From: Marsupella aquatica
Taxonomy: Eukaryota > Plantae > Marchantiophyta
Reading direction: 5' to 3'
Assembly (NCBI GenBank): GCA_973895155.1
Contig: OZ316898.1
Span: forward strand, 188,751 to 252,750
Length of the DNA stretch: 64,000 bases
Each line of letters starts with the position of its first letter. Positions within the stretch are counted from its first letter, which is position 1. Below the pieces are notes generated by a model. The model was not told where the DNA came from. It was given only the letters and a program-made list of their open reading frames with translations, and searched no databases. The position numbers and the translations under genes were made by a program. Shown here in pieces: positions 12,742 through 62,459 of the stretch.

Positions 12742-13345
12742 CTTTGAACCTGAATAATGTACATGCATAGTGCACCTGATGTGGATACCTTGGAGATTGC
12801 AGACATTCCAATTTTGAGAAGAAGGACCTCTGTAGGAGAGGATGCTTAGGCAACAAGTACCCTAAGTTCATTACTTGTTCCTGGGTACATGCCTTCAAAA
12901 ACTCCCCTTAAGCCTTCTAGGAACTTTTTTAACTCTGCAATCATTTTGATCACGACTTACATGACACTGCTTAAATTAAATCAGGACTTCTCATTATGAG
13001 CATATAAGTTACAAGGCTATTTAATTTGCGAGAATTCCCTTAAAGTGTACCAACATTTTGTATTCTCATTGAATGTCTGCCCATTTACAACATCTGTATG
13101 TGGCATCACAAAACAATTGCACTTGTCACCTTCAATATTGTGAAGGCACATATTCAAACTATGAGGTGCATGCTTGCAGGTGTCTAGTACGTTTGTCCCA
13201 ATATTTCTCCCGTTTGGAATCGGAGCAGAGACTCACCAGCCGACTGGACTGGACCAAGTTATAAACGCAGCATTTTAAGGGCCCTCCGATTATCAGGTGA
13301 ACGCATTATCTTCCGGTCTACAGTGATTAGGTGGCCCGTGTGTAC

Positions 13346-18084: not shown

Positions 18085-18170
18085 CTGTAAAACATTAAGA
18101 AATGAAAATAAGTTTATAACGCGAACGGTTGCGTGACTACAAAGAGAGACACTGAAATGAAGTGTATTAC

Positions 18171-22955: not shown

Positions 22956-25313
22956 TGTCACGCGATTGACATGGGTCTTAACACCAAAAACGTCACTATG
23001 GGTGCCAAAACCATCTCCTTGTACCTGAGGATCACGAAGGGATGTTGTGAATGCCGGTAAACACCAGTTTATGCCCTTAACACCAGACTATCATAGCAAG
23101 ACTCTATCACACATCACCCAAGCTCAATCCCAAGGAACCAAGGTTGGGGATCAGATCTGCGCTCATGATAGTTCTGGTGAGAAGGGGTCTTCATATCGGG
23201 CCCGTACACACAGGGCCTAGCGCTACGGTGCGCATAGGTCTATACATATGCTTACTGTCATAGGTATGTTTCTATTCCGCCGCCGGAATGTACCCATAAA
23301 CCAGTGACTCCTGACTGATTCCCGGCTTAGGGACTTCTAAGCCATTGCCCCACCACTCTGCCATTCCACTCTCAACAATCAGAGCTATGACAGTCCTCAC
23401 CCAGCCCGCTTCAATGCACCCGGTACACCTCTCAATGGCGCTGCTAGTTCCATCATACACTCAGATTGCCTCACACACACACACATCCATGAGAGAAATG
23501 AGGCCTGAGAGGAAAACTCAATTAGATTCAAAGATGTGCACAATAGTTCACTGAGAACACTTGATCCGAACACTAGGGCCGAAGGCTGTCTCCTCCAGAT
23601 TATGACGTGCTTGCCCTGCAAGCCCCGTGCTTGCCATGCAAGCTCAATCCTGAACTCAACCTCCTTCACTACACTTCATTCTTGGGGGCACATACAGATC
23701 TCACACCTCCAATTCAGAACGTCAAGTTACGCATGCATAGTTGACTCGACTTCAAAGCTGGTACCGGGCCTAACGGCGATCTATCCCAGACTGCAATGAG
23801 GCCCGGCCTCACGCTTGCCCTGCAAGCTCAGCTCTGGCCATAGATCCCTTAGTGCTCTCCACCAGACAAAGGCCGGGACTCCCCATGGATCACGTAGCCT
23901 TGCCAGACTGAACTGTAAATGCTCCTCCTGCTGCCCCTTAATTAGTACCTCAGCCTCCCTAATGTGCCCACCGCAAATTGAATTGAAATCCTCCCCACAG
24001 TTTACAATCACCAATACATCACCTATCACCAAGGCTCTGTATCGGGGGAAAAGAACCCAGTTGTGCTGCCCACTAGAAAGAGCCACAATCCAGCTCGCAA
24101 ACCTAGCAATCCGTTGTTGTGAAACTTGGCTGATTACTCCCTGAGTAATAGCACAACCAAGCTCTCCCCAACACGCAGCGTCCAAGTCCAGCCTTGCTTG
24201 CACAGAGCTCCTCCCCGCTACTCAGTCTAAGTGAGATCACACAACTGAAGTCCCCCCCCCTGCCTCTACCGGAGGGATGCTCTATATACTCTCTCATACT
24301 GAGCCCAAATGGGTGGATACTATGCTGCTGGAGCCCCATCCCAGCCCTAACAGAGCCGCCACTATCTCTAACTACTGAACCCTAACTCGCAACTTTATTT
24401 CTATCTCGAATTGGCTATGTACTTCGGATTCGGCCCTCCTCCATGGTTTTCGCGAGCTTGCGCCTCCTCTCCCGATTTCTCTATTTAACCATTTTCTGCG
24501 TGGATAGCAGCGTTGGAAGCGGCTTGAGCTCCTCTTTCCAACGAGGTCAATTATAGCCGATTTGATCAAATACACAGAGAGTTATGCCCCCGCAACCGAG
24601 AGGGGGTACTCACTGCTGCGCTAACCCGAGTTTGGCTAACCTAGCTATCCTATCTAACCCGAGTAGAGCTAACCCGTGGTCTCGGGTTAGGCCACTACCC
24701 GCTATCCGCTATCCGCTAACCTAGCCTAAGCTGAGCCCGAATCCGAGCTTACCTATGCTAACCTGAGGCCGCGCTGACCTGAGCTAAGCTGAAGCCGTGT
24801 TGACCTGAGCTAAGCTGAAGCCGTGCTGACCTGAGCTAAGCTGAAGCCGTTCTTACCTGAGATAAGCTGAAGCCGTGCTTACCTAAGCTAAGCTGAAGCC
24901 GTGCTGACCTGAGCTAAGCTGAAGCCGTGCTCACATAAGCTAAGCCGTGGTCGAACTTGGGTTAACCCGAAACTGAAGCCGAATCCGCTAATTCCGGCCA
25001 CAAGTTAACCCGTCACACTAATCAGGCCGTATCTTTCTTAATACACCTCCATTTCCCGAGTGTTTTATATCGATTTTACTCGCCTTGACCAGATCTTTCC
25101 AATGCTCTTTACAGATCCGGATTTGGTGACATATTGAAAGAGATATGGTCACCGACCACCTGCGACATAGCTTTTATTTCCCTACTCTTAACGCCATGAT
25201 TGCCCTTATTCTTGCCATCTTGCTAATTGTTATGCAATATCAATAGCTACTCCTTGCATACAGCAACCTACTTAATCAGATTACAAAATAAGGACCATGT
25301 CATTGGCGTCACA
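22956..25313 (-). mobile_element. Solo LTR, Ty3/gypsy family Z (2358 bp, non-coding)
   Basis: Minus strand reads TGTGACGCC...CGTGACA; TSD ACATG at 22951-22955 and 25314-25318; homologous to 37192-39365 and 52615-54444. Confidence 0.92.
24773..24948 (+). repeat. 26-bp tandem repeat, about 6.7 copies, inside LTR Z
   Basis: gctgacctgagctaagctgaagccgt units, head to tail, no spacers. Confidence 0.95.
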
Positions 25314-26001
25314 ACATGTCGTGCCGCAATGTCGTTAGTTGCGTTCCACTCTGCTGCTTAAATAATTAAAAAGAGGTTGATCATTTGGGGCAGCGTACGT
25401 ACTTCCCATGGACTTTTCATTTTCCCCAATTCAACTTTCCAACACAAGGGGTACCACTAGACCGGATTATTTTCCTATGGAGTCCAGGGCTATTATATTG
25501 AACTTCTGAATGATTGTGCCTCCTCGGAACGTCGATCCGCGTACCGATGATCTCCATGTACTAGAATTGTCAGGTATAATTGAGGGTTGGCAAGGTGTTC
25601 TATCTCTAATTCCAATTAATAATACACGGAAATTGCGTGAGTCTGTGACGCCGCCGGTACGGCGGTTAATGAGTGATTCAGTCTAACTGCGCTCAGCACG
25701 CGCGTTAGGTGGGTCTTAGGCCGCTATCATTAGCATAACGACAGTATTTAGGTAATCATTAGGGGTAGGACATCATTAGGCAATAAGGGGGACTTCAGGT
25801 TCGGGCTGGCGGCGGGTCACTATTCGCACACCCGGGTTACGAGCGTGGAGGGGCCCCTCCCTCGGGTCCGTATAACGAACTTAAGGAAGCGGCCACTGAC
25901 GCACGCTGACTCAGACCGGCGGAGTGGCCGGTACACCACAAGCGTGAGCAGTTCAACCTATGGGCGTCGAGGAGACGTCGGGGATCGACGAGCCCTTAAA
26001 G

Positions 26002-26008
26002 TATAAAA
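26002..26008 (+). promoter_or_regulatory. Candidate TATA box of the Y-LTR gene
   Basis: TATAAAA about 100 bp upstream of ATG 26110, followed by a CT-rich leader. Confidence 0.5.
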
Positions 26009-27935
26009 GGGGAGCCAACCCTTTGTAGTGCACCAGTCCATCAGTCCATGCGCCAGCTTCGACCCCAGCTCTCTCGTTCTCTCTAGGTCGCCACTACTAT
26101 CTCCTCTGAATGTCGCACACGATCCTCTCCAGCTCGGCCATTCGATTCTGGACGCAGTTCCTATCTACCGGAAGGCACTTGGCCGATTCATTGAAACACG
26201 CCAACCCGCGCCGATACGAGATCGAACGCGAATACGAGAGAGCCATCCGCCTAGCAGGACGACACCACTATGTCCTTAACTTTGACTACCCGTCTCAGAG
26301 CGAGCTTTACCGACCAGCTGAGGTATCTGGGTACTTCTTCAACGGAGACAAATATATCGGGTTCTAGGAAGCATTGCTTCGGCTTCCGGACGAGGTCTTC
26401 AATATCCCGGGTACAATCGACCTGCAGCGACATCACTTCGACCACATCCCTGCCCAGGTTCGGGCTGTCATTAACGGCGAGTCCAGTACCAACCGTTCGA
26501 CAAGGGCGTCCGCACTCGCTTCGGAGAACTTCTACCAGCACCTGCAGAGCTTCATGGGAACTCGGCCATCAACCAACATGACCAACTCAGCCGGACCCGT
26601 AACCGTACCCGTGCCCATGCAACCTCAGCCTCAACCTCAGCTTCAGCTTCAGCCTCAGCCGCAGCCTAGCCAAACCCCACCACCTATCACCCAGCCAGCA
26701 CAGGTACGCTCCATCATCAACGCTGTGGATCTTAGCGATGACGACGAGGCTACCCCACCCTTGACCAGGCGGCCCAGAGGAACAAGCGCTCGGGGGGCCG
26801 ACACTATATCGTCCCCACCCCCTGCTCTGACCCCAGGAGCGGCCCCAGCAGACAACATAGTGACCGTGGCCGCCCCGGGCCCGTTACCAACCGCAGTGGC
26901 ACTCCCCAGGCCCGATCGGGAGGATGGGGAAGTATCACCTTCCCCGAGTCAGTCACGGGGAAAGAAGAGGAAGGAATCCGCCACTGCATCCGGGTTACCG
27001 TTGGCCACGGTAGCCGTAGCCAAGGTGACGATGCATCGCATGGGGGAAAACGTTCACAGCAACATCCTCCATCCCAAGCATGCGGTGTACCTGAAGACTC
27101 AGGGATTTGAGCACCTCGCCTCTCTCCCCTGGAACACTTGCAGGTACTACGGGGAGGACATGACAGAATTCGTCAAGAATTATGACGACGTACGTCAACA
27201 GACTCGGCTGCGGGGAAGGAATATGTCCCTCACAGAAGAACGGCTCAAGATGATCTTCGGGTTACCCGAAGGTGACCATCGAGTCAAATCACGGGCTCCC
27301 GGGGGCAAGGGGGCCAAGTACCAATCTTCAAGTTTTCCCTCAGAGGGATCAGTAGACAACGGGTTCGTGATGAGGACCTGCCTCATGCCCGAGATAGCTG
27401 AGCGGCTGGAGTTCCAGAGGTACGCTCTCCACATGATGGAACCCCGGGGGGAGATCTCCGCCTCCCAGGTTATCCAGGTCGAGAACTATCGACCTAGGAA
27501 ATGGGCGTCGTACTTCGCTAAGAAATTCCATGAAGAGATGGAGCGGCGAAGGAAGACGCTGTACATTGGCGGGAAGGCGTATTTCGCTAGCCATATCGAA
27601 ATCATTCTTGAGTGGTACGCCCGGTTTGATCGACGAACCCTTCCCCGCATCAACGTTACAAAGCTGGTCCCAACTAGGTGGGTTTTTCCGGCATTGGAGA
27701 GACGGCCCCAACCCGAGGCCCGAAGTCCAGTGGGCACGCCAGCTTCACCCACCCCACCTCCACAAATAGCTGTAATCGTAACCGAGGAGGCGCCGGAGGG
27801 GTCGGTCGTCGCAACCGTTGATGCGACCCAACTAGCCGGGCTAAGTACAGAAGTTGGTACGGTAGAGGTCTTACCCGAACCCGGGTCTCCCAAGGACCCG
27901 CCGGTGGCAATTCCGGAGAACCGGACATCGCTGCA

Positions 27936-30900
27936 TGTGATGCCTAGACAGGAATCACTCGGCCGGTTAAGTGGGTAAAGCAGGAAGGCACCCTAGGAAC
28001 ACCTTAGTATAGTGACAAAACAAGGAAAATATAAACAATTAGGGGCAACCATGGAACCTGGGCAGAGGCCGGAGGTAAGGCTGAGGGTGAAAACCCGATT
28101 AGGGTTAGGGCGCGTTAAGCGTCGGCGGCTAGGAAGGATCAACGGGAAGAAGGACCGGCAGAGGAGAGGGGTAAGGAGCGCTTGCAGGAGATGGTGGCTC
28201 ATTTGCGAGCACGAACTAGGCAGACGACTACGGGAGGCCAACTACTGTCAGCTGCTTAGGCAAGCACTCGGGGAGAGAGTAGATACCGACGATCAACCTA
28301 AGGAGGGTATGAGCAACGTCAATCAAGCGGCACATTTCTGGGGATGCCTGTTCGAACGGGCAACTGAGTACATCAAGACTTACAAGGACGAGGAGTCAGA
28401 AAAGGCAGCTCGAGAATGGCAGGAGCTCGCTCGATTGTGGGAGCTGCAGAAGACGGCTTTCTTAGGAGGCGAACTCATCAAGGACGAGTTCCTGTGGACG
28501 CCTACTTCCAATCAACTCGACGATCTTCTGTTTTGCAAAGACAGTGTCGTCGGCATCCGAGAGGCCATCAAGAACTGCAACGACATACACTGGGAATTAA
28601 AGGGTAGCACGGAAAGGTGGACCCAGGCAACGGTGCTAGGAGAAACCTCCACGGCAGCAGAGATGAAGAGGAAGGGAGCCGTCAACGATGAAGCCACCCC
28701 GGCAAAAAGAACGAGGTCGGCGGCACCAAAGAAGCCAGCCGAGCAGCAGAGCAGGAGGCAGGGAGAAGCCGAAGAGGAGGAGGTCGATCCCATCAAGGCC
28801 ATTCCTACCAGGGATGACACCTGGAAGGGCTGGGCGGCAACCCTACCGGTGGAGGTGCAACTACATTTTGCACGGGAGGAGGATGCATGCTTTACGGCCA
28901 TGCAGACCAAGAAGTACCAAGGCTTCATGGCCGGATCCGGCTTGGAGGCCTTTGTAAGATTACCATGGCTGAAGCCGGAGGTACCGGAGTCAGACCTATT
29001 AGAATTCGTGGGGTCATGGGAACCCGAGACCAATTGCACGAGGATATATGGGAAGGATTTCTATCTTACTCCCAAGGTGATTGCCGAAGTGTTTGGCTTG
29101 CCGATGGGCAATAAGACCAAAGTTGATACCAGGAAGACCTTGCCTGACAAGGAGTTCCGGTCGTTCCCCGGGCCATCAACGAAGAATGGCTTCTTCCGGA
29201 ACACCTGCACCAACCCGCACATAGGAGAGATGATCGACTTCTTGCGGGTGACCATGCATTGTAACTTGCCGAGGGCAGAGATCGGCAAGGCACAGGTCTA
29301 TCTGGCAGAAAGGCCAGACCCAAGCCGGGACTACAACGGGTACCTCCTCAACCAATTGAAGAAGATCTTAAAGGAGGAGCAGCAGGTAATCGGCATGGGG
29401 AGCGTGTCGCGGCTTGGCTATCACATGCCGCTGTTGTGCCGGTATGCCAGAGGTCAGACTTTTGCCCCGGTACTTCCCCTGCAGGTAAGGGCACCCGAGG
29501 AAGCTCCAACGCCGAGGCCGTTGGCTGAGAAGCCTCAACCACCTATTAGTCCTACGATTGAGCAGGTGTTTAGGCCCAGGAAGGAAGACTTGCCGATGCA
29601 GCAACCAGGCATGCAGAGTCTGCTGAAACTACTGGAGAAAGAAAAGAAATTGGCATCGGCAACAACAACGGCAACGGCAACAATGCAGGACACTACTACA
29701 GAGGTAGGCCTACACCGGCTCACAAGAGAAAACCCCTTTGCTGGAGACAAGGAGAGAATCAGGCCGGAATCCAAGCCAGGTGTTCGAATGTACGTGGGAA
29801 CCTCAAGCTCCGAATCTGAGGCAGAATTGCCTGAAGCTCCTACCGAGGAAGAGGAGAGGGAGAAGCCGGAAATCCAAGAGGTAGAGGAGGCAGTGGAGGA
29901 CTGCAGCCATGATAATTCCGGCTATGGGTCGGACCATCACGTTCCAGGAGTAAGGACCTGTGGCCGGTTTGTCCCCACACTTCCAAGGGTAGTGCGAGGG
30001 GACCCCAACCAGCAGAGTAGCCCTGAGTCTCCCCCACCAGATGTTGCTCCCCTGAGCTTCGACGGCATAAAACAGACGGTGCAGGAATTTCAGGAGCGAA
30101 TCAAGCAGGAGGAAGAGGCCGCCCTGGCTAAGGAAAAGGATTTACCAGGAGGAGATTGGCCGGAGGACATCAGGCGGCTAGCCGAAAAAGGAAGCAAACC
30201 TCTAGCCACGATTGAAGAGATCCGCAGGACGGCTTGGGAGCAGAGGCCACGATGGGCGATGCCGATCACTTCTACTTACTCCACCTACGCTAAGAATAGA
30301 GCCATGGAGTATGGTGAGATGTGTGGGGAACTTGCGCTCGGCATCTTTGGAGAGGAGTTGGAGGTAGGACCCTTTTTCCATAGGGAGCAGTTGGAGAAGC
30401 ACCAATTAGAAGAAGCGGTGGCTTTAGAGAGAAGCAAGAAGGACGAGGTCATTCGGCGGCTTAGGAGGATGGGAGCCGAGATTGAAGATCTAAGGGCGGC
30501 CAAGAAAGCCCAAGATGAACTGCGGATTAAACGACATGAGCTGAACATCATGCAGGGGCAGTTGGACGCCGCGCAGGCTGATAATCAGAATATCAAGGAT
30601 AAACTGACTCAGACGCAGGAAGAGTTGGCCGACACGATCAAAGAAAGGGAAAAGTGGAAGCAAGAGCTGAAGAATACAGAGGAGGCCCACATAACAGCCA
30701 ACAGCCGGGCCATGGCGGAGACCCAAAGAAAGGAATGGGCGTTGAAAGGGGAGCTCGAGAAAATCCGCGGAGCCCTTGAGCAGAAGGAGGTCGAGTTAGG
30801 GAAATCCTATCAAGGGATTATGGCGCTGCAGCAGGAGCTTGCGTCCCTGACGGCCAGCTTCAAGGCCGACCTAAGGGAGAAGGACGAGATGCTCGAACAG

Positions 30901-32583
30901 ACTTACGCCAAGATGAACCAGATGGAGTCTGTCATCATTGCAGAGCTCGACAAGGAGCTAAGAGCAACCCAGGAGGAGAAGGCTACCTTGAAGAAGGAAT
31001 TGGAGGAAGCCCACAGGGAGCAGGAGGAGGCCAAAAACGAGCTGGAGGGGGCACGTAAGGACCTAGATGAAACCCAAGAGGAGTTGGAGGAAATCACGAG
31101 GAAGATGGAGAACCTACAGCGGCGGGCCGACAACCAAACAGAGCGGCTGAAGAAACAAGCCGCAGTATTTAAATGCTTAGCTGCAGCAGGTCCATCTCCT
31201 GTTGGGACAAACCAGTTACCAGGGGTGGTAATTGCCGAAGGACAAGCCGCGCCACCTGCACCAGTGCCGGAGGTAAGTGGGAAGGGGAAGGGACCAGCTG
31301 CCGAGCCACCAACGAAGAAGAAGCGGAAACCTTCAGGGTCAAGGAGTAATACGACTTCACAGGCCGTGGTGATCAAGGAGGTAGACCCAGCACCGACCCC
31401 AGACAGGGTCACGGCTAAGGATCCAACTACCCTAGGGGAAGGGGAGGCCGAAGCCGTGGGGTTGGCTGAAGCCGAAGCCGTGGGGGTGGCTGAAGCCGAA
31501 GCCGTGGGAGTTATCGAGGCTGAAGCCGAAGGTGGACCCAGTCAGGCCGATGGAGAGTTGACTCGGTCAAGGGCAGGTAATCTGTCAGTAGGCGGGCCAA
31601 CGGCAGTGGCTGAGGAGGAAGTGTTGGGGGCGTCCATTGAGGATCCACCACCGGTATCGTGACGGTGCAAGGGCGCCGTTCCTTTTAGGGAGGGCGGACG
31701 TGGAGGGAGGAGGCGTGAGTGGGCAGGGCGGGCACGGATCTCCACGTTTAGGATTAGGATCAGAACCAGGAGCGGCCCTGACACTTAGCTTAGTGGGATT
31801 GCGGTCCCACTGGTAGGAGCAACACTTGTGCTCCTGCCTTGCTGTACATAGGTAGATTCGGGCAAGTAGATTACTGTTAAGTAGATTAGGCTTACGATGC
31901 AAAGAATGGCGGATCCACTACCAGGATAAGTACCTGGGCAGCGGGGAGCTCAGGGCCTCTTCTTTAGCAAGTTTTTAGTTTGCACCAGCCGGGCTGGGAT
32001 CAAGTAGTACGAGAAGCTCTCGGTTAGTCATACAGTGACCCTTGTGTATATTCATGTTTCCTCATGCCTAAGAGCTGAATAGAGTTGGCCTCACGGCTTA
32101 GTTCGCAGAACTTGTGTATGAGATGTACTGTTTGTATGGCAAGTGCATGGTATGACTCAGTCAGAATGAGTCATTTTGCTATTTGTGTGTCGCATTAACT
32201 TGTGTGAAGAGTGCCCACATCAACAGAAGGAAGGAAAGTAAGCAGGGGAGTGAGAGTTGGATGTGTCGAGCTGAGAGAGGTCTTAGCGGCTTAACCAAGC
32301 CTATTGGGGATCATTCCGGCGGCGGAATCCAAACATACCTAACAAGACGGAGGGGAAGACAGGGGAAGACAGGGGAAGGCCTATATTAGGCCGGCTACGT
32401 ATCTCATGACCCGATGAAGGATCTGTCCAGTATATGTGTGTAAAATGTTAATAGTAGTAGTAGAAGGTTAGCAGCGTCCCATGCCGCTAAGCCGCGGAAA
32501 CGGCCTCGCCAAGCACGAAACCTGCGGGAATCGGCTTGAGCTGGGGGGTTTCTTGGGTTTAGGGAGCCATGGGACGCACCACA
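27936..32583 (+). mobile_element. Solo LTR, family X (4648 bp), protein-coding, nested in the Y-LTR gene
   Basis: TGTGATGCC...CACCACA termini; TSD CTGCA at 27931-27935 and 32584-32588; nearly identical to the 3' LTR at 54445-59095. Confidence 0.95.
28012..31662 (+). CDS. X-LTR-encoded 1216-aa protein (first ATG at 28051); plant-transposon eORF domain plus long coiled coil
   Basis: Intact ORF wholly within the LTR. Core GLEAFVRLPW..DLLEFVGSW..TRIYGKDFYLTPKVIAEVFGLP, NLS-like KKKRK, and EAEAVGxA repeats. Confidence 0.9.
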   Translation: MTKQGKYKQLGATMEPGQRPEVRLRVKTRLGLGRVKRRRLGRINGKKDRQRRGVRSACRRWWLICEHELGRRLREANYCQLLRQALGERVDTDDQPKEGMSNVNQAAHFWGCLFERATEYIKTYKDEESEKAAREWQELARLWELQKTAFLGGELIKDEFLWTPTSNQLDDLLFCKDSVVGIREAIKNCNDIHWELKGSTERWTQATVLGETSTAAEMKRKGAVNDEATPAKRTRSAAPKKPAEQQSRRQGEAEEEEVDPIKAIPTRDDTWKGWAATLPVEVQLHFAREEDACFTAMQTKKYQGFMAGSGLEAFVRLPWLKPEVPESDLLEFVGSWEPETNCTRIYGKDFYLTPKVIAEVFGLPMGNKTKVDTRKTLPDKEFRSFPGPSTKNGFFRNTCTNPHIGEMIDFLRVTMHCNLPRAEIGKAQVYLAERPDPSRDYNGYLLNQLKKILKEEQQVIGMGSVSRLGYHMPLLCRYARGQTFAPVLPLQVRAPEEAPTPRPLAEKPQPPISPTIEQVFRPRKEDLPMQQPGMQSLLKLLEKEKKLASATTTATATMQDTTTEVGLHRLTRENPFAGDKERIRPESKPGVRMYVGTSSSESEAELPEAPTEEEEREKPEIQEVEEAVEDCSHDNSGYGSDHHVPGVRTCGRFVPTLPRVVRGDPNQQSSPESPPPDVAPLSFDGIKQTVQEFQERIKQEEEAALAKEKDLPGGDWPEDIRRLAEKGSKPLATIEEIRRTAWEQRPRWAMPITSTYSTYAKNRAMEYGEMCGELALGIFGEELEVGPFFHREQLEKHQLEEAVALERSKKDEVIRRLRRMGAEIEDLRAAKKAQDELRIKRHELNIMQGQLDAAQADNQNIKDKLTQTQEELADTIKEREKWKQELKNTEEAHITANSRAMAETQRKEWALKGELEKIRGALEQKEVELGKSYQGIMALQQELASLTASFKADLREKDEMLEQTYAKMNQMESVIIAELDKELRATQEEKATLKKELEEAHREQEEAKNELEGARKDLDETQEELEEITRKMENLQRRADNQTERLKKQAAVFKCLAAAGPSPVGTNQLPGVVIAEGQAAPPAPVPEVSGKGKGPAAEPPTKKKRKPSGSRSNTTSQAVVIKEVDPAPTPDRVTAKDPTTLGEGEAEAVGLAEAEAVGVAEAEAVGVIEAEAEGGPSQADGELTRSRAGNLSVGGPTAVAEEEVLGASIEDPPPVS

Positions 32584-35500
32584 CTGCAGGAGGACACTCC
32601 AGCCCCTTCCAACGTTATGTCCCCAGGGCTGGACGTCACTGCCCCGGCCCCTGCGCGTGTTGATGTCTGCCCGTGCCCAAATCCGGATAGGCACAACTTG
32701 GACCACCCGGAACTCTTCGTACAGGGTACGTTTCTGAACGGGCTTCTGGGAGATTTCTCTCATCAAATTGTCCGGGATACCGGGGAGTTCATGGCCCGGA
32801 AGGTAGCCTGTTTCTTCAATCAGGAGTTGGTTGCCGCCGTAAAGGCAGGTCGGGCCCAGTCGGAGGCCCTTCAGAGGATAGAGCGGTACCGGGTGGAGTC
32901 CGTGTACCTAAAGAACGAAGTGGCGGCTCAAGAGGCTGAGCTTCTGCAACTACGACCCAAGGTTGCAGCCGCCGATGAGTTGTTAGCAAAGGCGTACGCC
33001 CTTACCGCCCTAGCCGAACAGGCCAAAGCGGGGAACGAGGCCGAGATTACACGACTTCGGAACCAGATTGACAGTTTGAAGAAACAAGCTGTCACCTGGC
33101 AGAAAGACCTGGAGGAAGCCGAGGAGCGAGCCCAGCGGGACGCGACGGAGATAGCCACGCTACAGGCCGAGATGGCGCGGCTCCAAACCGAGGCCGAGAA
33201 GCAGGACCAGCTGGCGAGTAAACTGACGAGCGACGCCCAGCAGCTGGAGGAGGCATGTCAGGAGGCAGCAGAGGAGACGGACGCGGCGAGGCGAGAGAAC
33301 GAATCTCTGCTGGACCAGGTCCAGCTCCTCAAGGCGGACAATGACAGGCTTCGAAGGCAGCGGGATGGCCGTTCCCATTCGGGCGGCTCTGGCAAGCGTG
33401 CCAGGCATTAGCGGCGGAGTAGGAATAGATTAGGATTAGGATTGGCTTAGTCAGGCTCTTGGGACAGGCACCTGCCTTAGGTACAGCAGCGCTGCCCTGC
33501 TGTCCAGCCTGCGTAGATTAGGATCTTCTAATAAGACACAGCCGTTTTCCGGCCTGACTGTCAGCTTAGTTAGGACCTTAGTCAGCGAATCTTCGGCGAG
33601 AGGACACCCCGTTCCTCGGCTCTTAGTATTTAGTGCACCCCTCGGTAGAGGCAGGGGGGTTTTTAGTTTCAGAGTCGAACATCCGCGGGACATGCGGGGA
33701 GTCCCGACCTCTGGGAATGACAGAGTACCATGGGGAGGGGGTAGGACTAAGCTCGTCGGGCGAGTGCGGAGCCGGGCTCCGTTGTAGTGTGCACCCTCGG
33801 CCTTGAACCTGTGCATTCCAGGGCTGTCGTGTCAACTAAGTGTACGCATATGTTCCCTTTGTAGTAAAATCCTTTCCCATCATTTTCCTTCGTGTAAATC
33901 GAGATTGTATGCATGTGTGCGCATATGTGTGTGGGTTTCTCGTATATGGGTGGCAGCGCCAGGCCGAACGCACTACCCGAGACGTGCACAGGGTGCAGCC
34001 TGCGGGTAAGTGGTTGCGAGCACGGGTTGAGGACCTGTATCATCGAATCCGGATCGAAGGCGGACAGCACGAAGGCTTAGAAGCCCTTAAGCCGGGGTCG
34101 ATCCTGCTATCGACTAAGGTACGTTCCGGCGGTGGAACACAAACCATACCTAGGAGGTGTCCGTATTTAGCAGTATGCGCACTTAGTGCTAGTTTACGAG
34201 AATAAGGTGCATTACGTGCTTCCCTTCCTGCCCGAACCCTCAGATTTACGAGGGATGTGCTCGTCTAAGCTGAAGTCTGAGTTAAGGCCGAAGCCTACGA
34301 CGTGACAGAGTCCAGTACTTGCCTTTGGGTACTCGATATTTTGGATTGTAAGGGGTATTACATACATAATCCGGTCAAGGTTTCCTGGTCGAATGGCGCG
34401 TTTATTGTTAATTCTTGCACCCGACGGAATGATGTGCAAGGTCTCCAGCCCCATTGCCTCATCCGCTTCAATTGATCGTCGTCAGAACGCCCACCCGCTG
34501 GACTGATTGAAGAAGCCCTTTCGGGAATAGAATGCTCACCAGTTGGACTTTCTTCGCTTACGTTGATCGGGTCTTCCAGCACTTGTGCTAGCATATTGGC
34601 TGCAGTGGCAGCCTCTGCCCTTAGTTAACACCTGTACTTGGAATATCCCAAGCTTTGTACCGAACATATTAATTTAATGTTATTGCTGGACCAGTTTGTT
34701 CCCACCTATGTACTTCCCTCAATCACTTCTCCATTTCTTTATCTCTCCTCTATGCACTCTCCGCGAGCGCGGCAATTAAGTGTAAGCACTCTTCTCCTCC
34801 AGCTGCTGGCGGAGTCCTTTGCACTGAACTTCATCCCGATGGAACTTTTGTTCGTACACCAACATCTCCATCCTTGTCGTGCTCTCCATGGAACCTTTGT
34901 TCCTATACTCCCATGGCTAGCAGAATGGCGATCATCTCTCGCCGATGCTGGACTGGTAAGTGACCTTATTGGTATAGTTGGCGCTACAAACACTTTAATC
35001 ATTCTTTTGTCGGTGGATGGCGTGGGTGATTATAAATGCCGGCATGGCAAAGTCGCTTTGCTTGGTTGCATTGCCTGGCCGAGTGGATAAGCTGCTTCTC
35101 ACCACGAGTGCACCGGTGGCATTTCGGTGCACCGTGCTCTTCGGACTGAAAACACCAAACAAACCCAAAACTGCATTTTGCGACTATTTGGATCAGTCCT
35201 TAAGTACCGGTCCGCACAAAACAGAGGCTCTACACGAGAGCCGCATATCCCGGGTCAAAATTGAATTTAGGGACAAAGTCCGCTTGGGTTTAAGGTGTAT
35301 GGTTGCTGTTTTTCAGTTAGTGGACAGTTATGGGCTATTTCTGCCCCTTCAGAGTTGAGGGTGTCTGCACAAAGACTCTAGAGAGCCTGAAAACCGGGGG
35401 GTGTGTGGTGTTGAGCAGGGCATGGGTTCAGTTGGGCCGGAGCCAAAGAACGGATACCAGCAGGGTGAATGGTGCCATGGTATGATGCCATGAGAGTTTG

Positions 35501-37135: not shown

Positions 37136-37191
37136 ACAAAAAAGACTGCAAAGACCGCACATTGCGATCGCTGGGCTGCATGAAAATGTAT

Positions 37192-39365: not shown

Positions 39366-42300
39366 CCTACTTTGGTCCCCAAATTTTGGCCCCCCACCTG
39401 GACCACGCATGGGCACGCCACTAGCTGCTTATGCCCATAACTTTCTAGTTAGGCGTCCGTAGGCGGAGTGCCTTAGCTCGTTGTGATCGGGCCAACCCAG
39501 TGCTTATGCCTAGACCCTCAAAACCCGTCATCACTTGGGGTCCCCGAGCGGCCACACCTAGGCCGGGCCTATCTCATGCTCCAAGTGTCCGTTACGCATG
39601 AAGTAAACTCCATTAGCCTTGGGCCCAAGAGGAGCTCTCACTCCAGCCCTCAAAACTCAAAGTCCGTCTGGGGGTCTCGACGGTCAACCTTGAGCTTGGC
39701 CCCTTCCCCATGACCCGACCAGCCCCAAGCTAGTTTAAGTCCTTAGTTTGCGTCACCAGCTTAGCGCCTTGCCTTCGCCAGTGCAACGCCTCATTGCCCA
39801 TAGTCTCCCCATGCTTAGTCCTCACCAGATGGTCGTTCTGGGCTTGGACCATAGAGGAGCTCAGTGTTGCTAACTCCGACACCAGAGCTAAGTGTTAAGG
39901 TAGTCGAGTTCCGCAAGTCTCCATCATGTGGAGTGTGTACCGCTGGAAGTCAAGCCGCTCTGCAACCTTTGGCCTGATACATGTTAACTTTGAGAAGGAA
40001 GCCGTTGTCTATGGACCCGTCGGGCGTGAAACTGGATGAGTGGTACTTGGCCCCCTTCCCCCCCCCCCGATGCCCATAATTCTACCCTGTCCATGCCTGC
40101 GGGCAAGCCAAAGATGAGTTTGAGCTGCGCTTTGGACAAGGACAAGTGTTTAGTAGGGATTTGACTAGGGCCCAGTAGTGATTGCAGGCCAGATTGCAGA
40201 CTAGAATTTGGATTCCCAAAACTGCCAGATCATTTATGTGAATGTGGCTGTGTTTGTTGAGCACCACCTCCGGAGCTCGATTGGCCCACCTCCATTGTGT
40301 GATGTCTGAGTGAGGAGACATTGTTAGGTCTACTATGTATCACCAATCTTTCTCTCTCAGGATTTGCTCTAAATGAATATTAGTATTACTAGTCCATTGA
40401 TATCTAAGAGAATGTGATCTTTGTTGTAGAAGACATCTTAAAGTATGCGATGCAGATTTCACAGTTATGGCTATGATACCATGATTGTGTAAAATCTTTG
40501 TGAATTGATGAAGAAGACATCCCTGAAATGGGAGTTAAACACAGATCCAAATTGTGACTAGACCAACGATTGGCTTGGATAGGGATCTATTACAAATGAC
40601 TGACCAGGAAGTGTCCATTTGATTCTAAGGAACATACACAATGCTCACCTGTTGCCTGTTTCATACTCAATCGACTATTTCATACTGTTGACAAAACCAG
40701 TGAGTACTCGAGCTCCGCTGCTATACGTATGTCATACACAGCCTCTATAGTAACATCTATTGCAGAAATCTGACTGCCAACCATTGCGTTGCATATCACA
40801 CTATTGTGACCATGTAAAAATTTCTGTTTACTTCTCATTCTGGATGCACTTTCGCCCAGATAACAACTAACCCTGAGATTCATTTGATGTTTGCCTGTGA
40901 ACAGTGAAGGAAGAACAAACGTGGAAGTCCATTTTGTCACCAAAACACCAGGGCACACTGATTCTGGACCAAAACACCAGCGCAATGGTTCCGAATGTAA
41001 AGTACAATCATTGATAAAATAGATGTCAAATGGAGGCTCTACACGAGAGTCGTGTATGGTGGGTCGGACAATGAAGGCGATTTGGGTCCTATGGGTGAAT
41101 GGAATCAGAACGTAGATGGAGGTGAGTAACAAAGTATGAATTCCGCAGCCATGGATGCAGTGCTAAAGGGGAATCCAAGGCAATGAGCACATTGAAGAAG
41201 TAGATTAAAGGCGATAGGAATTCAAGAAGGCCATGCGCCTTGGCATTGTGGGTGTGCTGCGGCCATGGGGCCATGAGTGACGATGAGTTGAATTGGTTGC
41301 AAGGGTGGTGATTGATGTTAGCATGAATGGTGACTGTATTAGATGTGAGTGTAGATTGGCATTGAGTCCGCTACAGTATATATCCCGGTTCCCGACTGTG
41401 CCACATTTAATTAGTTCTAATCACCAAGCTTTGTCTCCTTTGTATGTCGTTTCCGACGTACAAAATTGAATGTCTTGCAACACAATTCAACTCATCGTAC
41501 GTACAAAATGGAAAGTAGTATCAATCACCACCCTTGCGGCCATGGGGCCATGAGTGACGATGAGTTGAATTGGTTGCAAGGGTGGTGATTGATACTACGT
41601 ACAAAATGGAAATGGTGATTTTTATCTCCTGTAGCTTTAATACTCGTACGTACAAAATGGAAAGTTTCAACATCAAAGCTACAGGAGATAAAAAGTTTAA
41701 CCAGAAATGTCATGGGAGTCTAAGAATTCAAGTGGGTGAGTCACCTTTGATGCCAGTGGTGCTTAAACGACATAACAAAAATGTTATGGGAGTCTAACAT
41801 TGCCCCCAGGTAATCAATACTAGCCGAGTTTAAAAAATTTAACATCAATTCCATGGGAGCCACATGCAAGAGACTGCACAACGTTCCGCAAACCTGAAGA
41901 CCTGCCTCATTGCATGCACAGTGACCAGAAGATATGAACCTTCCTCTGGACCCGCACACAACTTGACCAGCTATTATTGTGCAAGGGCAGTGTAGCAGGC
42001 ATAAGGGAGGCCATCTAGAGGTGTTCAAGCATTTGGAAGCCATCACGGCCACTGTAGATTTGGACAAAGGAGATCATTCTTGGAGGTGAATCACCTTGGT
42101 ACACAATGAATGGAAAGGTAGGAGGTAATGCGGAGGCCTATGGGGCATCAAAGAAGGCTAGGTAGGCTTAATGAGTCAAGAATCGGACAACAGCAACACC
42201 AAGCAAAAAGGAGCCAAAACCAGATGGGACGTGAGTTTGAAGCAACAGTGGAGACATCACAACAAAATGATGAGAAGTGGGCAGGTTGGACTCAGAGCAA

Positions 42301-54444: not shown

Positions 54445-57400
54445 TGTGGTGCGTCCCATGGCTCCCTAAACCCAAGAAACCCCCCAGCTCAAGCCGATTC
54501 CCGCAGGTTTCGTGCTTGGCGAGGCCGTTTCCGCGGCTTAGCGGCATGGGACGCTGCTAACCTTCTACTACTACTATTAACATTTTACACACATATACTA
54601 GACAGATCCTTCATCGGGTCATGAGATACGTAGCCGGCCTAATATAGGCATTCCCCTGTCTTCCCTTGTCTTCTTGTTAGGTATGTTTGGATTCCGCCGC
54701 CGGAATGATCCCCAATAGGCTTGGTTAAGCCGCTAAGACCTCTCTCAGCTCGACACATCCAACTCTCACTCCCCTGCTTACTTTCCTTCCTTCTGTTGAT
54801 GTGGGCACTCTTCACACAAGTTAATGCGACACACAAATAGCAAAATGACTCATTCTGACTGAGTCATACCATGCACTTGCCATACAAACAGTACATCTCA
54901 TACACAAGTTCTGCGAACTAAGCCGTGAGGCCAACTCTATTCAGCTCTTAGGCATGAGGAAACATGAATATACACAAGGGTCACTGTATGACTAACCGAG
55001 AGCTTCTCGTACTACTTGATCCCAGCCCGGCTGGTGCAAACTAAAAACTTGCTAAAGAAGAGGCCCTGAGCTCCCCGCTGCCCAGGTACTTATCCTGGTA
55101 GTGGATCCGCCATTCTTTGCATCGTAAGCCTAATCTACTTAACAGTAATCTACTTACCCGAATCTACCTATGTACAGCAAGGCAGGAGCACAAGTGTTGC
55201 TCCTACCAGTGGAACCGCAATCCCACTAAGCTAAGTGTCAGGGCCGCTCCTGGTTCTGATCCTAATCCTAAACGTGGAGATCCGCGCCCGCCCTGCCCAC
55301 TCACGCCTCCTCCCTCCACGTCCGCCCTCCCTAAAAGGAACGGCGCCCTTGCACCGTCACGACACCGGTGGTGGATCCTTAATGGACGCCCCCAACGCTT
55401 CCTCCTCAGCCACTGCCGTAGGTTCATTCTCTGACAGATTACCTGCCCTTGACTGAGTCAACTCTCCATCGGCCTGACTGGGTCCACCTTCGGCTTCAGT
55501 CTCGACACCGGCCTCGGCAATACCCACGGCTTCGGCCTCAGTCACTCCCTCGGCTTCGGCTTCAGCCACTCCCTCGGCTTCGGCCTCCCCTTCCCCTAGG
55601 GTAGTTGGATCCTTAGCCGTGACCCTGTCTGGGGTCGGTGCTGGGTCTACCTCCTTGATCACCACGGCCTGTGAAGTCGTATTACTCCTTGACCCTGAAG
55701 GTTTCCGCTTCTTCTTCGTTGGTGGCTCGGTAGCTGGTCCCTTCCCCTTCCCACTTACTTCCGGCACTGGTGCAGGTGGCGCGGCTTGTCCTTCGGCAAT
55801 TACCACCCCTGGTAACTGGTTTGTCCCAACGGGAGATGGACCTGCTGCAGCTAAGCATTTAAATACTGCGGCTTGTTTCTTCAGCCGCTCTGTTTGGTTG
55901 TCGGCCCGCCGCTGTAGGTTCTCCATCTTCCTCGTGATTTCCTCCAACTCCTCTTGGGTTTCATCCAGGTCCTTACGTGCCCCCTCCAGCTCGTTTTTGG
56001 CCTCCTCCTGCTCCCTGTGGGCTTCCTCCAATTCCTTCTTCAAGGTAGCCCTCTCCTCCTGGGTTGCTCTTAGCTCCTTGTCGAGCTCTGCAATGATGAC
56101 AGACTCCATCTGGTTCATCTTGGCGTAAGTCTGTTCGAGCATCTCGTCCTTCTCCCTTAGGTCGGCCTTGAAGCTGGCCGTCAGGGACGCAAGCTCCTGC
56201 TGCAGCGCCATAATCCCTTGATAGGATTTCCCTAACTCGACCTCCTTCTGCTCAAGGGCTCCGCGGATTTTCTCGAGCTCCCCTTTCAATGCCCATTCCT
56301 TTCTTTGGGTCTCCGCCATGGCCCGGCTGTTGGCTGTTATGTGGGCCTCCTCTGTATTCTTCAGCTCTTGCTTCCACTTCTCCCTCTCTTTGATCGTGTC
56401 GGCCAACTCTTCCTGCGTCTGAGTCAGTTTATCCTTGATATTCTGATTATCAGCCTGCGCGGTGTCCAACTGCCCCTGCATGATGTTCAGCTCATGTCGT
56501 TTAATCCGTAGTTCATCTTGGGCTTTCTTGGCCGCCCTTAGATCTTCAATCTCGGCTTCCATCCTCCTAAGCCGCCGAATGACCTCGTCCTTCTTGCTTC
56601 TCTCTAAAGCCACCGCTTCTTCTAATTGGTGCTTCTCCAACTGCTCCCTATGGAAAAAGGGTCCTACCTCCAACTCCTCTCCAAAGATGCCGAGCGCAAG
56701 TTCCCCACACATCTCACCATACTCCATGGCTCTATTCTTAGCGTAGGTGGAGTAAGTAGAAGTGATCGGCATCGCCCATCGTGGCCTCTGCTCCCACGCC
56801 GTCCTGCGGATCTCTTCAATCGTGGCTAGAGGTTTGCTTCCTTTTTCGGCTAGCCGCCTGATGTCCTCCGGCCAATCTCCTCCTGGTAAATCCTTTTCCT
56901 TAGCCAGGGCGGCCTCTTCCTCCTGCTTGATTCGCTCCTGAAATTCCTGCACCGTCTGTTTTATGCCGTCGAAGCTCGGGGGAGCAACATCTGGTGGGGG
57001 AGACTCAGGGCTACTCTGCTGGTTGGGGTCCCCTCGCACTACCCTTGGAAGTGTGGGGACAAACCGGCCACAGGTCCTTACTCCTGGAACGTGATGGTCC
57101 GACCCATAGCCGGAATTATCATGGCTGCAGTCCTCCACTGCCTCCTCTACCTCTTGGACGTCCGGCTTCTCCCTCTCCTCTTCGTCGGTAGGAGCTTCAG
57201 GCAATTCTGCCTCAGATTCGGAGCTTGAGGTTCCCACGTACATTCGAACACCTGGCTTGGATTCCGGCCTGATTCTCTCCTTGTCTCCAGCAAAGGGGTT
57301 TTCTCTTGTGAGCCGGTGTAGGCCTACCTCTGTAGTAGTGTCCTGCATTGTTGCCGTTGCCGTTGTTGTTGCCGATGCCGATTTCTTTTCTTTCTCCAGT

Positions 57401-59095
57401 AGTTTCAGCAGACTCTGCATGCCTGGTTGCTGCATCGGCAAGTCTTCCTTCCTGGGCCTAAACACCTGCTCGATCGTAGGACTAACAGGTGGTTGAGGCT
57501 TCTCAGCCAACGGCCTCGGTGTTGGAGCTTCCTCGGGTGCCCTTACCTGCAGGGGAAGTACCGGGGCAAAAGTCTTACCTCTGGCATACCGGCACAATAG
57601 CGGCATGTGATAGCCAAGCCGCGACACGCTCCCCATGCCGATTACCTGCTGCTCCTCCTTTAAGATCTTTTTCAATTGGTTGAGGAGGTACCCGTTGTAG
57701 TCCCGGCTTGGGTCTGGCCTTTCTGCCAGATAGACCTGTGCCTTGCCGATCTCTGCCCTCGGCAAGTTACAATGCATGGTCACCCGCAAGAAGTCGATCA
57801 TCTCTCCTATGTGCGGGTTGGTGCAGGTGTTCCGGAAGAAGCCATTCTTCGTTGATGGCCCGGGGAACGACCGGAACTCCTTGTCAGGCAAGGTCTTCCT
57901 GGTATCAACTTTGGTCTTATTGCCTATCGGCAAGCCAAACACTTCGGCAATTACCTTGGGAGTAAGATAGAAATCCTTCCCATATATCCTCGTGCAATTG
58001 GTCTCGGGTTCCCATGACCCCACGAATTCTAATAGGTCTGACTCCGGTACCTCCGGCTTCAGCCATGGTAATCTTACAAAGGCCTCCAAGCCGGATCCGG
58101 CCATGAAGCCTTGGTACTTCTTGGTCTGCATGGCCGTAAAGCATGCATCCTCCTCCCGTGCAAAATGTAGTTGCACCTCCACCGGTAGGGTTGCCGCCCA
58201 GCCCTTCCAGGTGTCATCCCTGGTTGGAATGGCCTTGATGGGATCGACCTCCTCCTCTTCGGCTTCTCCCTGCCTCCTGCTCTGCTGCTCGGCTGGCTTC
58301 TTTGGTGCCGCCGACCTCGTTCTTTTTGCCGGGGTGGCTTCATCGTTGACGGCCCCCTTCCTCTTCATCTCTGCTGCCGTGGAGGTTTCTCCTAGCACCG
58401 TTGCCTGGGTCCACCTTTCCGTGCTACCCTTTAATTCCCAGTGTATGTCGTTGCAGTTCTTGATGGCCTCTCGGATGCCGACGACGCTGTCTTTGCAAAA
58501 TAGAAGATCGTCGAGTTGATTGGAAGTAGGCGTCCACAGGAACTCGTCCTTGATGAGTTCGCCTCCTAAGAAAGCCGTCTTCTGCAGCTCCCACAATCGA
58601 GCGAGCTCCTGCCGTTCTCGAGCTGCCCTTTCTGACTCCTCGTCCTCGTAAGTCTTGATGTACTCAGTTGCCCGTTCGAACAGGCATCCCCAGAAATGTG
58701 CCGCTTGATTGACGTTGCTCATACCCTCCTTAGGTCGATCGTCGGTATCTATTCTCTCCCCGAGTGCTTGCCTAAGCAGCTGACAGTAGTTGGCCTCCCG
58801 TAGTCGTCTGCCTAGTTCGTGCTCGCAAATGAGCCACCATCTCCTGCAAGCGCTCCTTACCCCTCTCCTCTGCCGGTCCTTCTTCCCGTTGATCCTTCCT
58901 AGCCGCCGACGCTTAACGCGCCCTAACCCTAATCGGGTTTTCACCCTTAGCCTTACCTCCGGCCTCTGCCCGGGTTCCATGGTTGCCCCTAATTGTTTAT
59001 ATTTTCCTTGTTTTGTCACTATACTAAGGTGTTCCTAGGGTGCCTTCCTGCTTTACCCACTTAACCGGCCGAGTGATTCCTGTCTAGGCATCACA
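54445..59095 (-). repeat. 3' LTR of family X (4651 bp)
   Basis: TGTGATGCC start directly after the PPT, CACCACA end; boundaries coincide with the TSD-defined solo copy. Confidence 0.93.
55357..59019 (-). CDS. X-LTR-encoded 1220-aa protein, second intact copy
   Basis: Near-identical to 28012-31662; indels keep the frame. Confidence 0.9.
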   Translation of the reverse strand: MTKQGKYKQLGATMEPGQRPEVRLRVKTRLGLGRVKRRRLGRINGKKDRQRRGVRSACRRWWLICEHELGRRLREANYCQLLRQALGERIDTDDRPKEGMSNVNQAAHFWGCLFERATEYIKTYEDEESERAARERQELARLWELQKTAFLGGELIKDEFLWTPTSNQLDDLLFCKDSVVGIREAIKNCNDIHWELKGSTERWTQATVLGETSTAAEMKRKGAVNDEATPAKRTRSAAPKKPAEQQSRRQGEAEEEEVDPIKAIPTRDDTWKGWAATLPVEVQLHFAREEDACFTAMQTKKYQGFMAGSGLEAFVRLPWLKPEVPESDLLEFVGSWEPETNCTRIYGKDFYLTPKVIAEVFGLPIGNKTKVDTRKTLPDKEFRSFPGPSTKNGFFRNTCTNPHIGEMIDFLRVTMHCNLPRAEIGKAQVYLAERPDPSRDYNGYLLNQLKKILKEEQQVIGMGSVSRLGYHMPLLCRYARGKTFAPVLPLQVRAPEEAPTPRPLAEKPQPPVSPTIEQVFRPRKEDLPMQQPGMQSLLKLLEKEKKSASATTTATATMQDTTTEVGLHRLTRENPFAGDKERIRPESKPGVRMYVGTSSSESEAELPEAPTDEEEREKPDVQEVEEAVEDCSHDNSGYGSDHHVPGVRTCGRFVPTLPRVVRGDPNQQSSPESPPPDVAPPSFDGIKQTVQEFQERIKQEEEAALAKEKDLPGGDWPEDIRRLAEKGSKPLATIEEIRRTAWEQRPRWAMPITSTYSTYAKNRAMEYGEMCGELALGIFGEELEVGPFFHREQLEKHQLEEAVALERSKKDEVIRRLRRMEAEIEDLRAAKKAQDELRIKRHELNIMQGQLDTAQADNQNIKDKLTQTQEELADTIKEREKWKQELKNTEEAHITANSRAMAETQRKEWALKGELEKIRGALEQKEVELGKSYQGIMALQQELASLTASFKADLREKDEMLEQTYAKMNQMESVIIAELDKELRATQEERATLKKELEEAHREQEEAKNELEGARKDLDETQEELEEITRKMENLQRRADNQTERLKKQAAVFKCLAAAGPSPVGTNQLPGVVIAEGQAAPPAPVPEVSGKGKGPATEPPTKKKRKPSGSRSNTTSQAVVIKEVDPAPTPDRVTAKDPTTLGEGEAEAEGVAEAEAEGVTEAEAVGIAEAGVETEAEGGPSQADGELTQSRAGNLSENEPTAVAEEEALGASIKDPPPVS

Positions 59096-61048: not shown

Positions 61049-62459
61049 GATATCTAGCCATACTGTGGTATGGGTGTCCCTGCAATTTTTTCTGGAAACT
61101 TGTTTATTTTTAGCATATCACAAGATTTACTTACACTTTAGACACCTTCCGGCCAACATTTACTTGTTCTGGACACTTATAGAAATATTTGACATCTCCG
61201 GCTTTCCTGACGATTCCTAGTGTACTTTGCCCGACGCTGTGACCAGCGCCCGTTTCTTTTACTCAAGACGCTGCGGAAGCGTCCAACCTCCTCATGACGC
61301 TTTTGGCAGTGCCCGACCGCCACCAAGACTCTATGAGGATTTCGACCGACGCTGTGGAAAGCGTCAGCTTCAACACACGACGCTGTGAGCAGCGTCCACC
61401 CTAGTATTGACGCTGTGAGCAGTGTGAGCAGCGTCCGTTGGTTTTACTTAAGACGCTTCTAGCAGCGTCCAGATTCTCCCGACGCTTCTAGCAGCGTCCG
61501 CTCAACACTTAGTTTTTGAAGTAGATTACTAGTAAAGTAGTATTCTACCACCCTTGTTGAAGTACTTATGCTGTGCTTCTCCCTTGTTTAGTTTTAAGCT
61601 TGGAAAGGCACGACTGTTCTTACCTCCTCCATTTTAGGATTCCAGCACTTATAAGACAGAGTAGAATGCTCATTTGAAGTAGAGAGAAATAGAGTTAATA
61701 CTGTATTCAGAATTGAGTCTTCTGAATAGTTTTCTCCTCCTTCCATTGTAACAAGGCATGCTGTGAGTGTTTTGTATGGAAGTAAAGCTATATTGATTGA
61801 AGTTAAGATTGAATTCAAGAGATTCCTGTGGTGATTGAATTCAGTTGCAGATTTCTGAAACTCGTATTGAATTCACTGCTAGGCTTGCTTGCAGAGTCGG
61901 GATTCGCTAGCCAATTCAAGAATAGTTAATGATAAATGAGAAGTAAATTCTGATTCTCAGAGTAGTTAGTACTGTTGCTTTGATTCTGGAATATGGTTTA
62001 GAGTTTGACTGAATTGCGTATCGCTGATGTCAAACCATGTTGACGGCATTTTAAATCATATCATTCATTTGCAATCAGAAAGCTTCTGCTTCATCAGATT
62101 GAGAATTCCATTATCATTAACCTTTGTGTTTTGAAGAGTGAGATGGATGAATTATGAGATAGATTTCATGTCTATACTGAGCCCAAATCCTTTCTGAAGG
62201 AGTGGCAATAGCAGTTTGTAGTCTCTAAATCCTTACTCATTTCTTCTCTAATTCATAAATCAGAAGTTCAGTTACTTTGTTGTTTGTTTATTCGATTTTT
62301 TTATTGAGAAGTGAAGTCAACATAGAGCTCAAGACTCTAAATCACTCGGAGTGATAAAAGTTATACAATTCATTCTGAAATCTGTTCTTAAAGGGATCGA
62401 AACCCTGGTTTTAGGTGAGGAGAGTCACTTTTGATACTTAGCACTATACGACATCTTTT

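Follow-up and report, generated by a model that had tools for sequence, protein, structure and literature searches.

A repeated insertion unit of Marsupella aquatica, likely a solo LTR, carries a gene with a predicted VANC21-like core

Insertion units Y, X and Z in the window

The window analysed here, a stretch of 64,000 nucleotides from the liverwort Marsupella aquatica, contains at 25644..34307 on the plus strand a unit of family Y, a likely solo LTR. Its 5' end at 25644 reads TGTGACGCC and its 3' end CGTGACA closes at 34307; the termini are of the TG..CA type and are flanked by the target site duplication (TSD) GAGTC at 25639-25643 and 34308-34312. On inspection of the sequence, the bounds and TSD proposed in the initial annotation hold, as does the length of 4011 bp that remains after excision of a nested unit of family X (8664-4648-5, the 4648 bp of X being removed together with a 5-bp TSD). 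The empty site was recovered as a joint 25638->34308 with 5 ambiguous letters and one TSD copy in three of the four sequencing runs examined (the joint alone seen), and uninterrupted Y copies without X, as envisaged in the initial annotation, are present as a joint 27930->32584 in two of the four, both counts being made among the 15 of 174 joints listed. The four runs (X1, X2, X5 and X6, from four coded organisms, one of them possibly the source of the window) belong to 14 listed, of which 11 contain the stretch or part of it and 5 contain half or more, none being recorded as RNA. In runs X1 and X2 the summed depth reaches ~93,000-347,000 in Y-only bins versus 490-800 in the flanks, a ratio that does not stand for copy number. 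Y ends do not occur among the loose ends of sequencing reads in the 24 of 2177 rows listed. Y is a discrete unit of insertion and is highly repeated.

The insertion within Y is a solo X LTR of 4648 bp (27936..32583, plus strand; TSD CTGCA), 98% identical to a second X copy at 54445..59095 on the minus strand, which starts and stops at the same two points of the repeat as the solo copy. The second copy follows directly after a purine tract and the end of an integrase, and serves a Ty3/gypsy element as its 3' LTR. As it adjoins integrase and polypurine tract and recurs solo with a TSD, X is a true Ty3/gypsy LTR that carries its gene inside, namely an intact accessory ORF of 1203 aa (28051..31662, plus strand) with a core at ~28828-29475 and a coiled coil at ~30400-31180. 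Between the two X copies, pN/pS of this ORF is 0.33, and the X gene is under purifying selection. The non-coding X trailer (31663-32583) diverges by 0.66% between the two copies versus 3.3% at synonymous sites of the ORF, a pattern suggestive of constraint in cis or of recent exchange.

The pol remnant of the X element (59084..61117, minus strand, 677 codons, with its stop inside the LTR) extends from RNase H to integrase in the order RH 69-197, integrase zinc domain at 299 and core 372-471. The integrase runs into the LTR with no Pfam match to a chromodomain after it, and Pfam finds no second RNase H beyond RH, either ahead of the integrase or behind it. The element is interrupted near 61100 by another insertion and by the window end, with the 5' LTR outside the window; the sequence that cuts pol upstream of RNase H (~61100-62450) is unrelated, AT-rich and resembles the LTR of another element. 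Among the best 120 of 2308 matches to X pol, the closest reaches 65%; the best named relatives belong to two liverworts, Calypogeia fissa and Riccia sorocarpa, with 42-63% in the upper rows, followed by gymnosperms and angiosperms, an order that makes a bryophyte host likely. According to the definitions in PMC6317226 (publications given by identifier are cited throughout for the available part of their text), the element is a non-chromovirus and neither Phygy nor Ogre, Retand or TatIII, because it lacks a chromodomain, lacks the additional archaeal RNase H that the latter three carry beyond RH on one side or the other of the integrase, and the TSDs found here (GAGTC, CTGCA, ACATG) differ from the NCGN target of Phygy. 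In TatI and TatII the additional archaeal RNase H is placed between protease and RT, a portion of pol that lies outside the window.

A third family, Z, is represented by a solo unit of ~2.36 kb at 22956..25313 (minus strand, TSD ACATG) and by further copies at 37189-39365 (plus strand) and 52615-54444 (minus strand). Z possesses the Y-type termini and three trailer motifs of Y, with no sense-strand frame above 146 codons. A gag gene after the second Z copy was considered and ruled out, as 39366-40400 holds no long frame. Of tandem non-coding repeats, none was found in Y, while a single 28-nt repeat occurs in X and an array of 26 bp x 8 in Z. A conserved 3' block with hairpins lies in Y at 34074..34155 (plus strand) and is common with Z and in part with X, whose copy of the hairpin motif common to all three lies at 32312..32341 (plus strand). 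The initial annotation saw no nucleotide similarity between X and Y by eye, but their 3' trailers share a block of 29 nt, whose score of 36 exceeds the null maximum of 30 (200 resamples). Rfam gives 0 matches on 31600-34400, and none for the Y block. As the z-scores of the hairpins predicted in X, Y and Z are modest (-0.28, -1.82 and -1.68), the conserved 3' structure is a lead and not a result. The block after the hairpin reads like the 5' splice-donor consensus AG/GTATG in antisense orientation (34138-34152 in Y, 32328-32341 in X and 23261-23274 in Z).

The units are also found nested, with X in Y (27936) and X in Z (54444) within the window, and with joints in run X2 that suggest X in X (32583->29432, 29999 and 31729; 31372->27936) and Y in Y (33320->25647). 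Elsewhere in the window, a long gene with 303-bp repeats and a C-terminal DYW region at 43459-47991 (minus strand) presumably belongs to the PPR family, as judged from its motifs. A twin BRCT frame (13331-14194, plus strand), a NIF-type phosphatase domain (17179-18213, minus strand) and a charged helical protein with 15-bp repeats (19065-20909, minus strand) are host genes or cargo of another element. Identical direct repeats of 143 bp at 3157-3299 and 7161-7303, 4004 bp apart, may mark the two ends of a small, young element.

Y and X have a common layout of leader, long sense ORF and trailer (896 nt in Y versus 921 nt in X). Pol is absent from Y, as 7 queries taken from the 120 pol relatives match only 59138-61063, and there is no terminal direct repeat, the longest shared word being 11 nt. 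Together with the 3' motif common with X and the TG..CA and TSD signature, these features make Y probably a solo LTR. An alternative is a non-LTR, self-contained unit, non-autonomous or DNA-transposon-like, with short TG..CA inverted ends and a captured VANC-like gene, for which speak the imperfect inverted repeats at the Y ends (8 of the first 10 bases) and the lack of a Y-gag-pol junction among the sequences seen. VANC itself resides on a DNA transposon, and two Riccia relatives of the protein core (P0175 and P0181) are fused to pieces of a DDE_Tnp_4 transposase, gene models which are possibly artefacts. These fusions hint that the core domain also occurs on Harbinger-type DNA transposons, and it is thus probably not confined to retrotransposons. 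On the other hand, the inverted ends of Y cover only ~10 nt, while a 5-bp TSD combined with TG..CA is the usual signature of LTRs (93.4% of elements have 5-bp TSDs; PMC6317226), and Y has the 3' motif, orientation, trailer length and gene layout of X, which is an LTR by position. As an internally deleted retroelement would moreover retain two direct repeats, of which Y has none, a non-LTR origin of Y appears decidedly unlikely.

The Y gene and its conserved core

The Y frame extends from the ATG at 26110 to the stop at 33409-33411 and comprises 85+1+522+1+273 = 882 codons, of which one is split by the X insertion, with equal phase on both sides. The proposed merger of three ORFs into one frame of about 882 aa with a single TAG was thereby reproduced. 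Piece 1 (26110..26364, plus strand, 85 aa) constitutes the first part of a conserved N-terminal domain, recognized by alignment to P0191, a natural intact relative of 906 aa (0 of 500 shuffles attain the score), and by a profile from five relatives (E 2.5e-6). The in-frame TAG (26365..26367, plus strand) is a lesion of this Y copy, as the site reads as a sense codon in 95-100% of the depth in all four sequencing runs. Piece 2 (26368..27935, plus strand, 522 aa; E 3e-70 to P0191) contains the end of the N-domain, a Pro/Gln-rich linker, basic clusters and the conserved core, and piece 3 (32589..33411, plus strand, 273 aa, in phase with piece 2) a helical region, a coiled coil and a basic C-terminus, colinear with residues 636-899 of P0191 (0 of 500 shuffles attain the score). 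With all three pieces aligning in order to P0191, the Y ORF is, as read from sequence, one real gene. Both the stop and the X insertion count as lesions of the window copy, since other copies have a sense codon at the stop or are uninterrupted and P0191 is intact. For this copy, the idea of a self-contained expression cassette is excluded, as one in-frame stop and a 4.6 kb X insertion prevent it from working.

Comparison of the Y and X proteins gives 27% identity over 240 columns (BLASTP, E 6e-17) and an alignment score of 189 versus a shuffle maximum of 71, with 0 of 1000 shuffles attaining 189; the motifs named in the initial annotation as common to X and Y all lie within this alignment. The proposed homology of the two proteins stands for the core and falls for the coiled coil, as the coiled-coil parts show no significant likeness (best E 0.068). 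Nor do the N-termini (71 of 1000 shuffles attain the score; Y-type N-domain profile versus X, E 0.75), and it is therefore only the core that is shown to be homologous. A frameshifted remnant of a further Y-like core is located at 39920..40144 (minus strand; tblastn E 1e-13, DNA alignment), and one of an X-like N-terminal region at 41941-42319 (plus strand).

The Y core domain (26998..27660, plus strand, 221 aa) is predicted to adopt a VANC21-like fold of the DUF1985/PMD type. Its AlphaFold2 model has a pLDDT of 94, and the best structural match by Foldseek and VIA-align is VANC21 (PDB 9LNJ), with the predicted fold spanning 205 of the 221 residues at ~10% identity; a two-sequence model with a pLDDT of 31 was set aside. 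Membership of the core in the VANC/PMD fold group is, on these models, highly probable. Sequence profiles give less. Among eight window proteins Pfam finds nothing for the X or Y core at E<=1, with weak coiled-coil matches elsewhere. PF09331 (VANC/DUF1985) at its cut-off of 35 recognizes neither X nor Y, one of 69 relatives reaching 23 bits, and PF10536 (Plant mobile domain) at its cut-off recognizes 0 of the 8 window proteins and 0 of the 69 relatives. DUF287 gives no match, a sequence search of the PDB returns three rows at E 0.02-0.7, none across the core, and a viral structure library has no match at E<=0.001. An Atlas lead to PMD scores 0.86-0.89, with PMD on 18% of cluster members. The protein is VANC/PMD-like by predicted fold, but by the tests run not a member of VANC or of Pfam PMD.

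The 69 relatives of the core come from a full HMMER scan. Word-index searches yield none at E<=0.001, neither among 1535 candidates for the Y core nor among 322 for the X core; in view of the HMMER result, these blanks mark a limit of sensitivity. Among the relatives of at least 450 aa, 7 of 24 pass a crude coiled-coil screen, many of the relatives being fragments. A scan of metagenome contigs for related loci produced 274 pattern matches and 0 confirmed loci; a motif scan of the contigs gave one match, rejected as chance because it lies inside a bacterial gene, presumably sufB. The liverwort relatives, from two liverworts, are known as proteins alone. Of the initial proposal that such LTR-borne genes are an old, lineage-wide trait, the age of the protein family is borne out by these relatives, while 'lineage-wide' is overstated, as the third family Z is without this ORF.

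Basic clusters and the lack of a membrane segment point to nuclear targeting, and the C-terminal coiled coil is predicted to serve self-assembly. The highest hydropathy over 19 residues is <=1.26 in Y pieces 1-3, X, P0191 and P0198, and consequently no membrane segment is predicted in any of them. This bears on an env-like membrane protein as a further candidate, suggested by the X ORF, which lies in sense orientation directly after pol, the position of env-like genes (PMC7264820). With the transmembrane ORF after pol that characterizes Athila/env-like elements not found by the hydropathy scan, a DNA-binding protein as the fold match and the viral structure library blank at E<=0.001, an env-like protein is highly improbable.

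Candidate promoters and a possible role

The TATAAAA at 26002..26008 (plus strand) noted in the initial annotation is indeed located before the Y ATG and is a candidate promoter of the Y gene, a modest indication with a chance probability of ~0.04-0.05 in 466 nt for a word chosen post hoc. In X, TATAAA at 28030 (chance 0.09) precedes the first ATG by 21 nt and the second by 279 nt, and in both families canonical TATAAA words are found only upstream of the ORF. That the 5' TATA drives the Y gene is, from these motifs, somewhat favoured. Downstream of the Y stop, a TATA-like word with a G-rich block common to Y and Z (33625..33659, plus strand; 36 nt at 89%, E 1e-6 when six segments were compared) is a candidate promoter of the genomic RNA. 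Under the simplest model, the accessory mRNA would start from a promoter at the 5' edge and the genomic RNA from a separate one in the trailer, so that the gene would lie in U3.

Alternatively, the ORF may lie in R/U5 and open the genomic RNA as its first cistron, behind one 5'-edge promoter, similar to the 5' extra ORF of Ogre, a layout compatible with either role of the protein discussed below. Under this single promoter, solo LTRs need not be separate cassettes. The restriction of TATAAA words to the region before the ORF in Y and X agrees with it, and a sense 5' PMD-CC ORF is present in the Tat elements of lineage IV (Ogre; PMC4408406). Such a layout would, however, require strong-stop DNA of 3.6-4.5 kb and translation of gag behind an ORF of 2.6-3.6 kb, and the TATA-like block conserved in Z is situated after the Y ORF, which makes it fairly unlikely.

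The explanation that best accommodates these observations, with slightly better than even prospects as a whole, regards Y as the likely solo LTR of an X-related non-chromovirus Ty3/gypsy element, X and Y both carrying an LTR gene whose product has a VANC21-like core and likely counteracts silencing via the element's own DNA. The accessory gene would occupy a long U3, with its promoter at the LTR's 5' border (TATA at 26002 in Y, 28030 in X), its transcript would terminate in the ~0.9 kb trailer, and genomic RNA would start within the trailer, near 33625 in Y. Solo LTR formation by host recombination is the usual way in which retrotransposons are disarmed. As recombination between LTRs leaves one whole LTR, every solo LTR would keep the gene, and solo LTRs may supply the protein in trans after loss of gag-pol. 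The core would bind motifs in the element and relieve host silencing, as VANC does for VANDAL (PMC5735166).

Whether the protein acts in anti-silencing rather than in another nuclear job is, arguing by analogy, evenly balanced. With the same arrangement of LTR and accessory gene, the protein could instead activate transcription, export RNA, assist nuclear import or direct integration, for instance towards sister LTRs. A fold match at ~10% identity carries no function, reviews propose Tat/Rev-like roles for plant extra ORFs (PMC7264820, PMC11963269), and the nesting, conspicuous in the window for X within both Y and Z and suggested by joints in other runs for X in X and Y in Y, would suit targeting. 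The best structural neighbour is, however, a DNA-bound anti-silencing factor, and nesting is expected anyway given the abundance of the repeats, so that one of these other jobs seems rather improbable.

The boldest reading is that a bryophyte Ty3/gypsy lineage moved a VANC-like gene for sequence-specific anti-silencing into its LTR, with the solo LTRs as cassettes that keep the family demethylated in trans; we regard it as tentative and on the whole doubtful. If true, retrotransposons would have an equivalent of VANC that predates the PMD ORFs of seed plants and the VANC of dicots, and giant protein-coding LTRs would have been missed by pipelines capped at ~2 kb or annotated as host genes. Units of this kind can end up annotated as host genes, several relatives being 'unnamed protein products' of Calypogeia fissa.

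Relation to known systems

The role of extra ORFs in plant retrotransposons is left open in the consulted parts of the reviews PMC4408406, PMC6317226, PMC7264820 and PMC11963269; the predicted VANC21 fold offers a direct test, binding to DNA motifs and local demethylation. In addition, a gene of 2.6-3.6 kb in the LTR changes what the formation of a solo LTR means, as gag-pol is removed and the accessory gene kept. Accessory genes inside Tat/Ogre elements are already known. In the accessible literature, searched by titles and the opening lines of abstracts, neither a plant LTR that encloses a protein-coding gene nor a VANC-like retrotransposon protein is described; the LTR position and the bryophyte host of the accessory gene look new. 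Non-chromovirus LTRs of up to ~5 kb are known (PMC6317226), while extra ORFs are placed in the internal region in the available text of a review (PMC7264820).

The PMD-CC ORFs of Tat lineages IV (Ogre) and V and the PMD ORF of TatIII are likewise accessory genes of non-chromoviruses (PMC4408406, PMC6317226), and in Tat IV/V a PMD-type domain is followed by a C-terminal coiled coil, as here (PMC4408406). In contrast, the X/Y core misses the Pfam PMD cut-off, and the Tat extra ORFs, from seed plants, are located 5' (sense) or 3' (antisense) in the element, whereas those described here are in sense orientation inside the LTR (PMC4408406). Moss Tat-like elements appeared without an extra ORF in the part of PMC4408406 seen, from a pipeline which capped LTRs at 2000 bp, the use of the cap for moss being unstated there. 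If host and lineage are as the pol matches suggest, the present units speak against the view that moss Tat-like elements are without extra ORFs and that these first arose in gymnosperms.

Retand TRP28 and Grande gene23, the latter with its own promoter, also encode accessory nuclear or predicted DNA-binding proteins (PMC11963269, PMC7264820), but are antisense and internal, between pol and a 3' LTR of 315-1194 bp, and have a different domain. Due to this internal position they are lost from solo LTRs. MMTV sag and HIV nef, on the other hand, are protein genes in U3 and so present at both ends; with ~200-320 aa and unrelated proteins and functions, they offer an analogy of layout only. Phygy, a Physcomitrella non-chromovirus, shares the lack of a chromodomain, but is described as short, with a polyprotein filling the internal part and NCGN sites, as opposed to the 5-bp TSDs and 2.4-4.6 kb units of X, Y and Z (PMC6317226).

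With respect to the predicted fold, the host genes MAIN, MAIL1 and MAIL2 (PMD-C) are reported to share the DUF1985 fold of VANC and act at promoter motifs against Polycomb silencing (10.1101/2024.09.27.615353); they are flowering-plant genes, and their link to the present proteins is the Atlas lead. The structure shared between PMD-C and VANC is described in 10.1101/2024.09.27.615353 and PMC13547354. VANC21 of the Arabidopsis VANDAL21 is likewise encoded by a transposon and likewise has variable low-complexity regions and a predicted coiled-coil self-assembly (PMC5735166, PMC13547354), yet VANC resides on a Mutator-like DNA transposon of dicots and X on Ty3/gypsy, the two being connected by ~10% identity and a fold that is predicted here.
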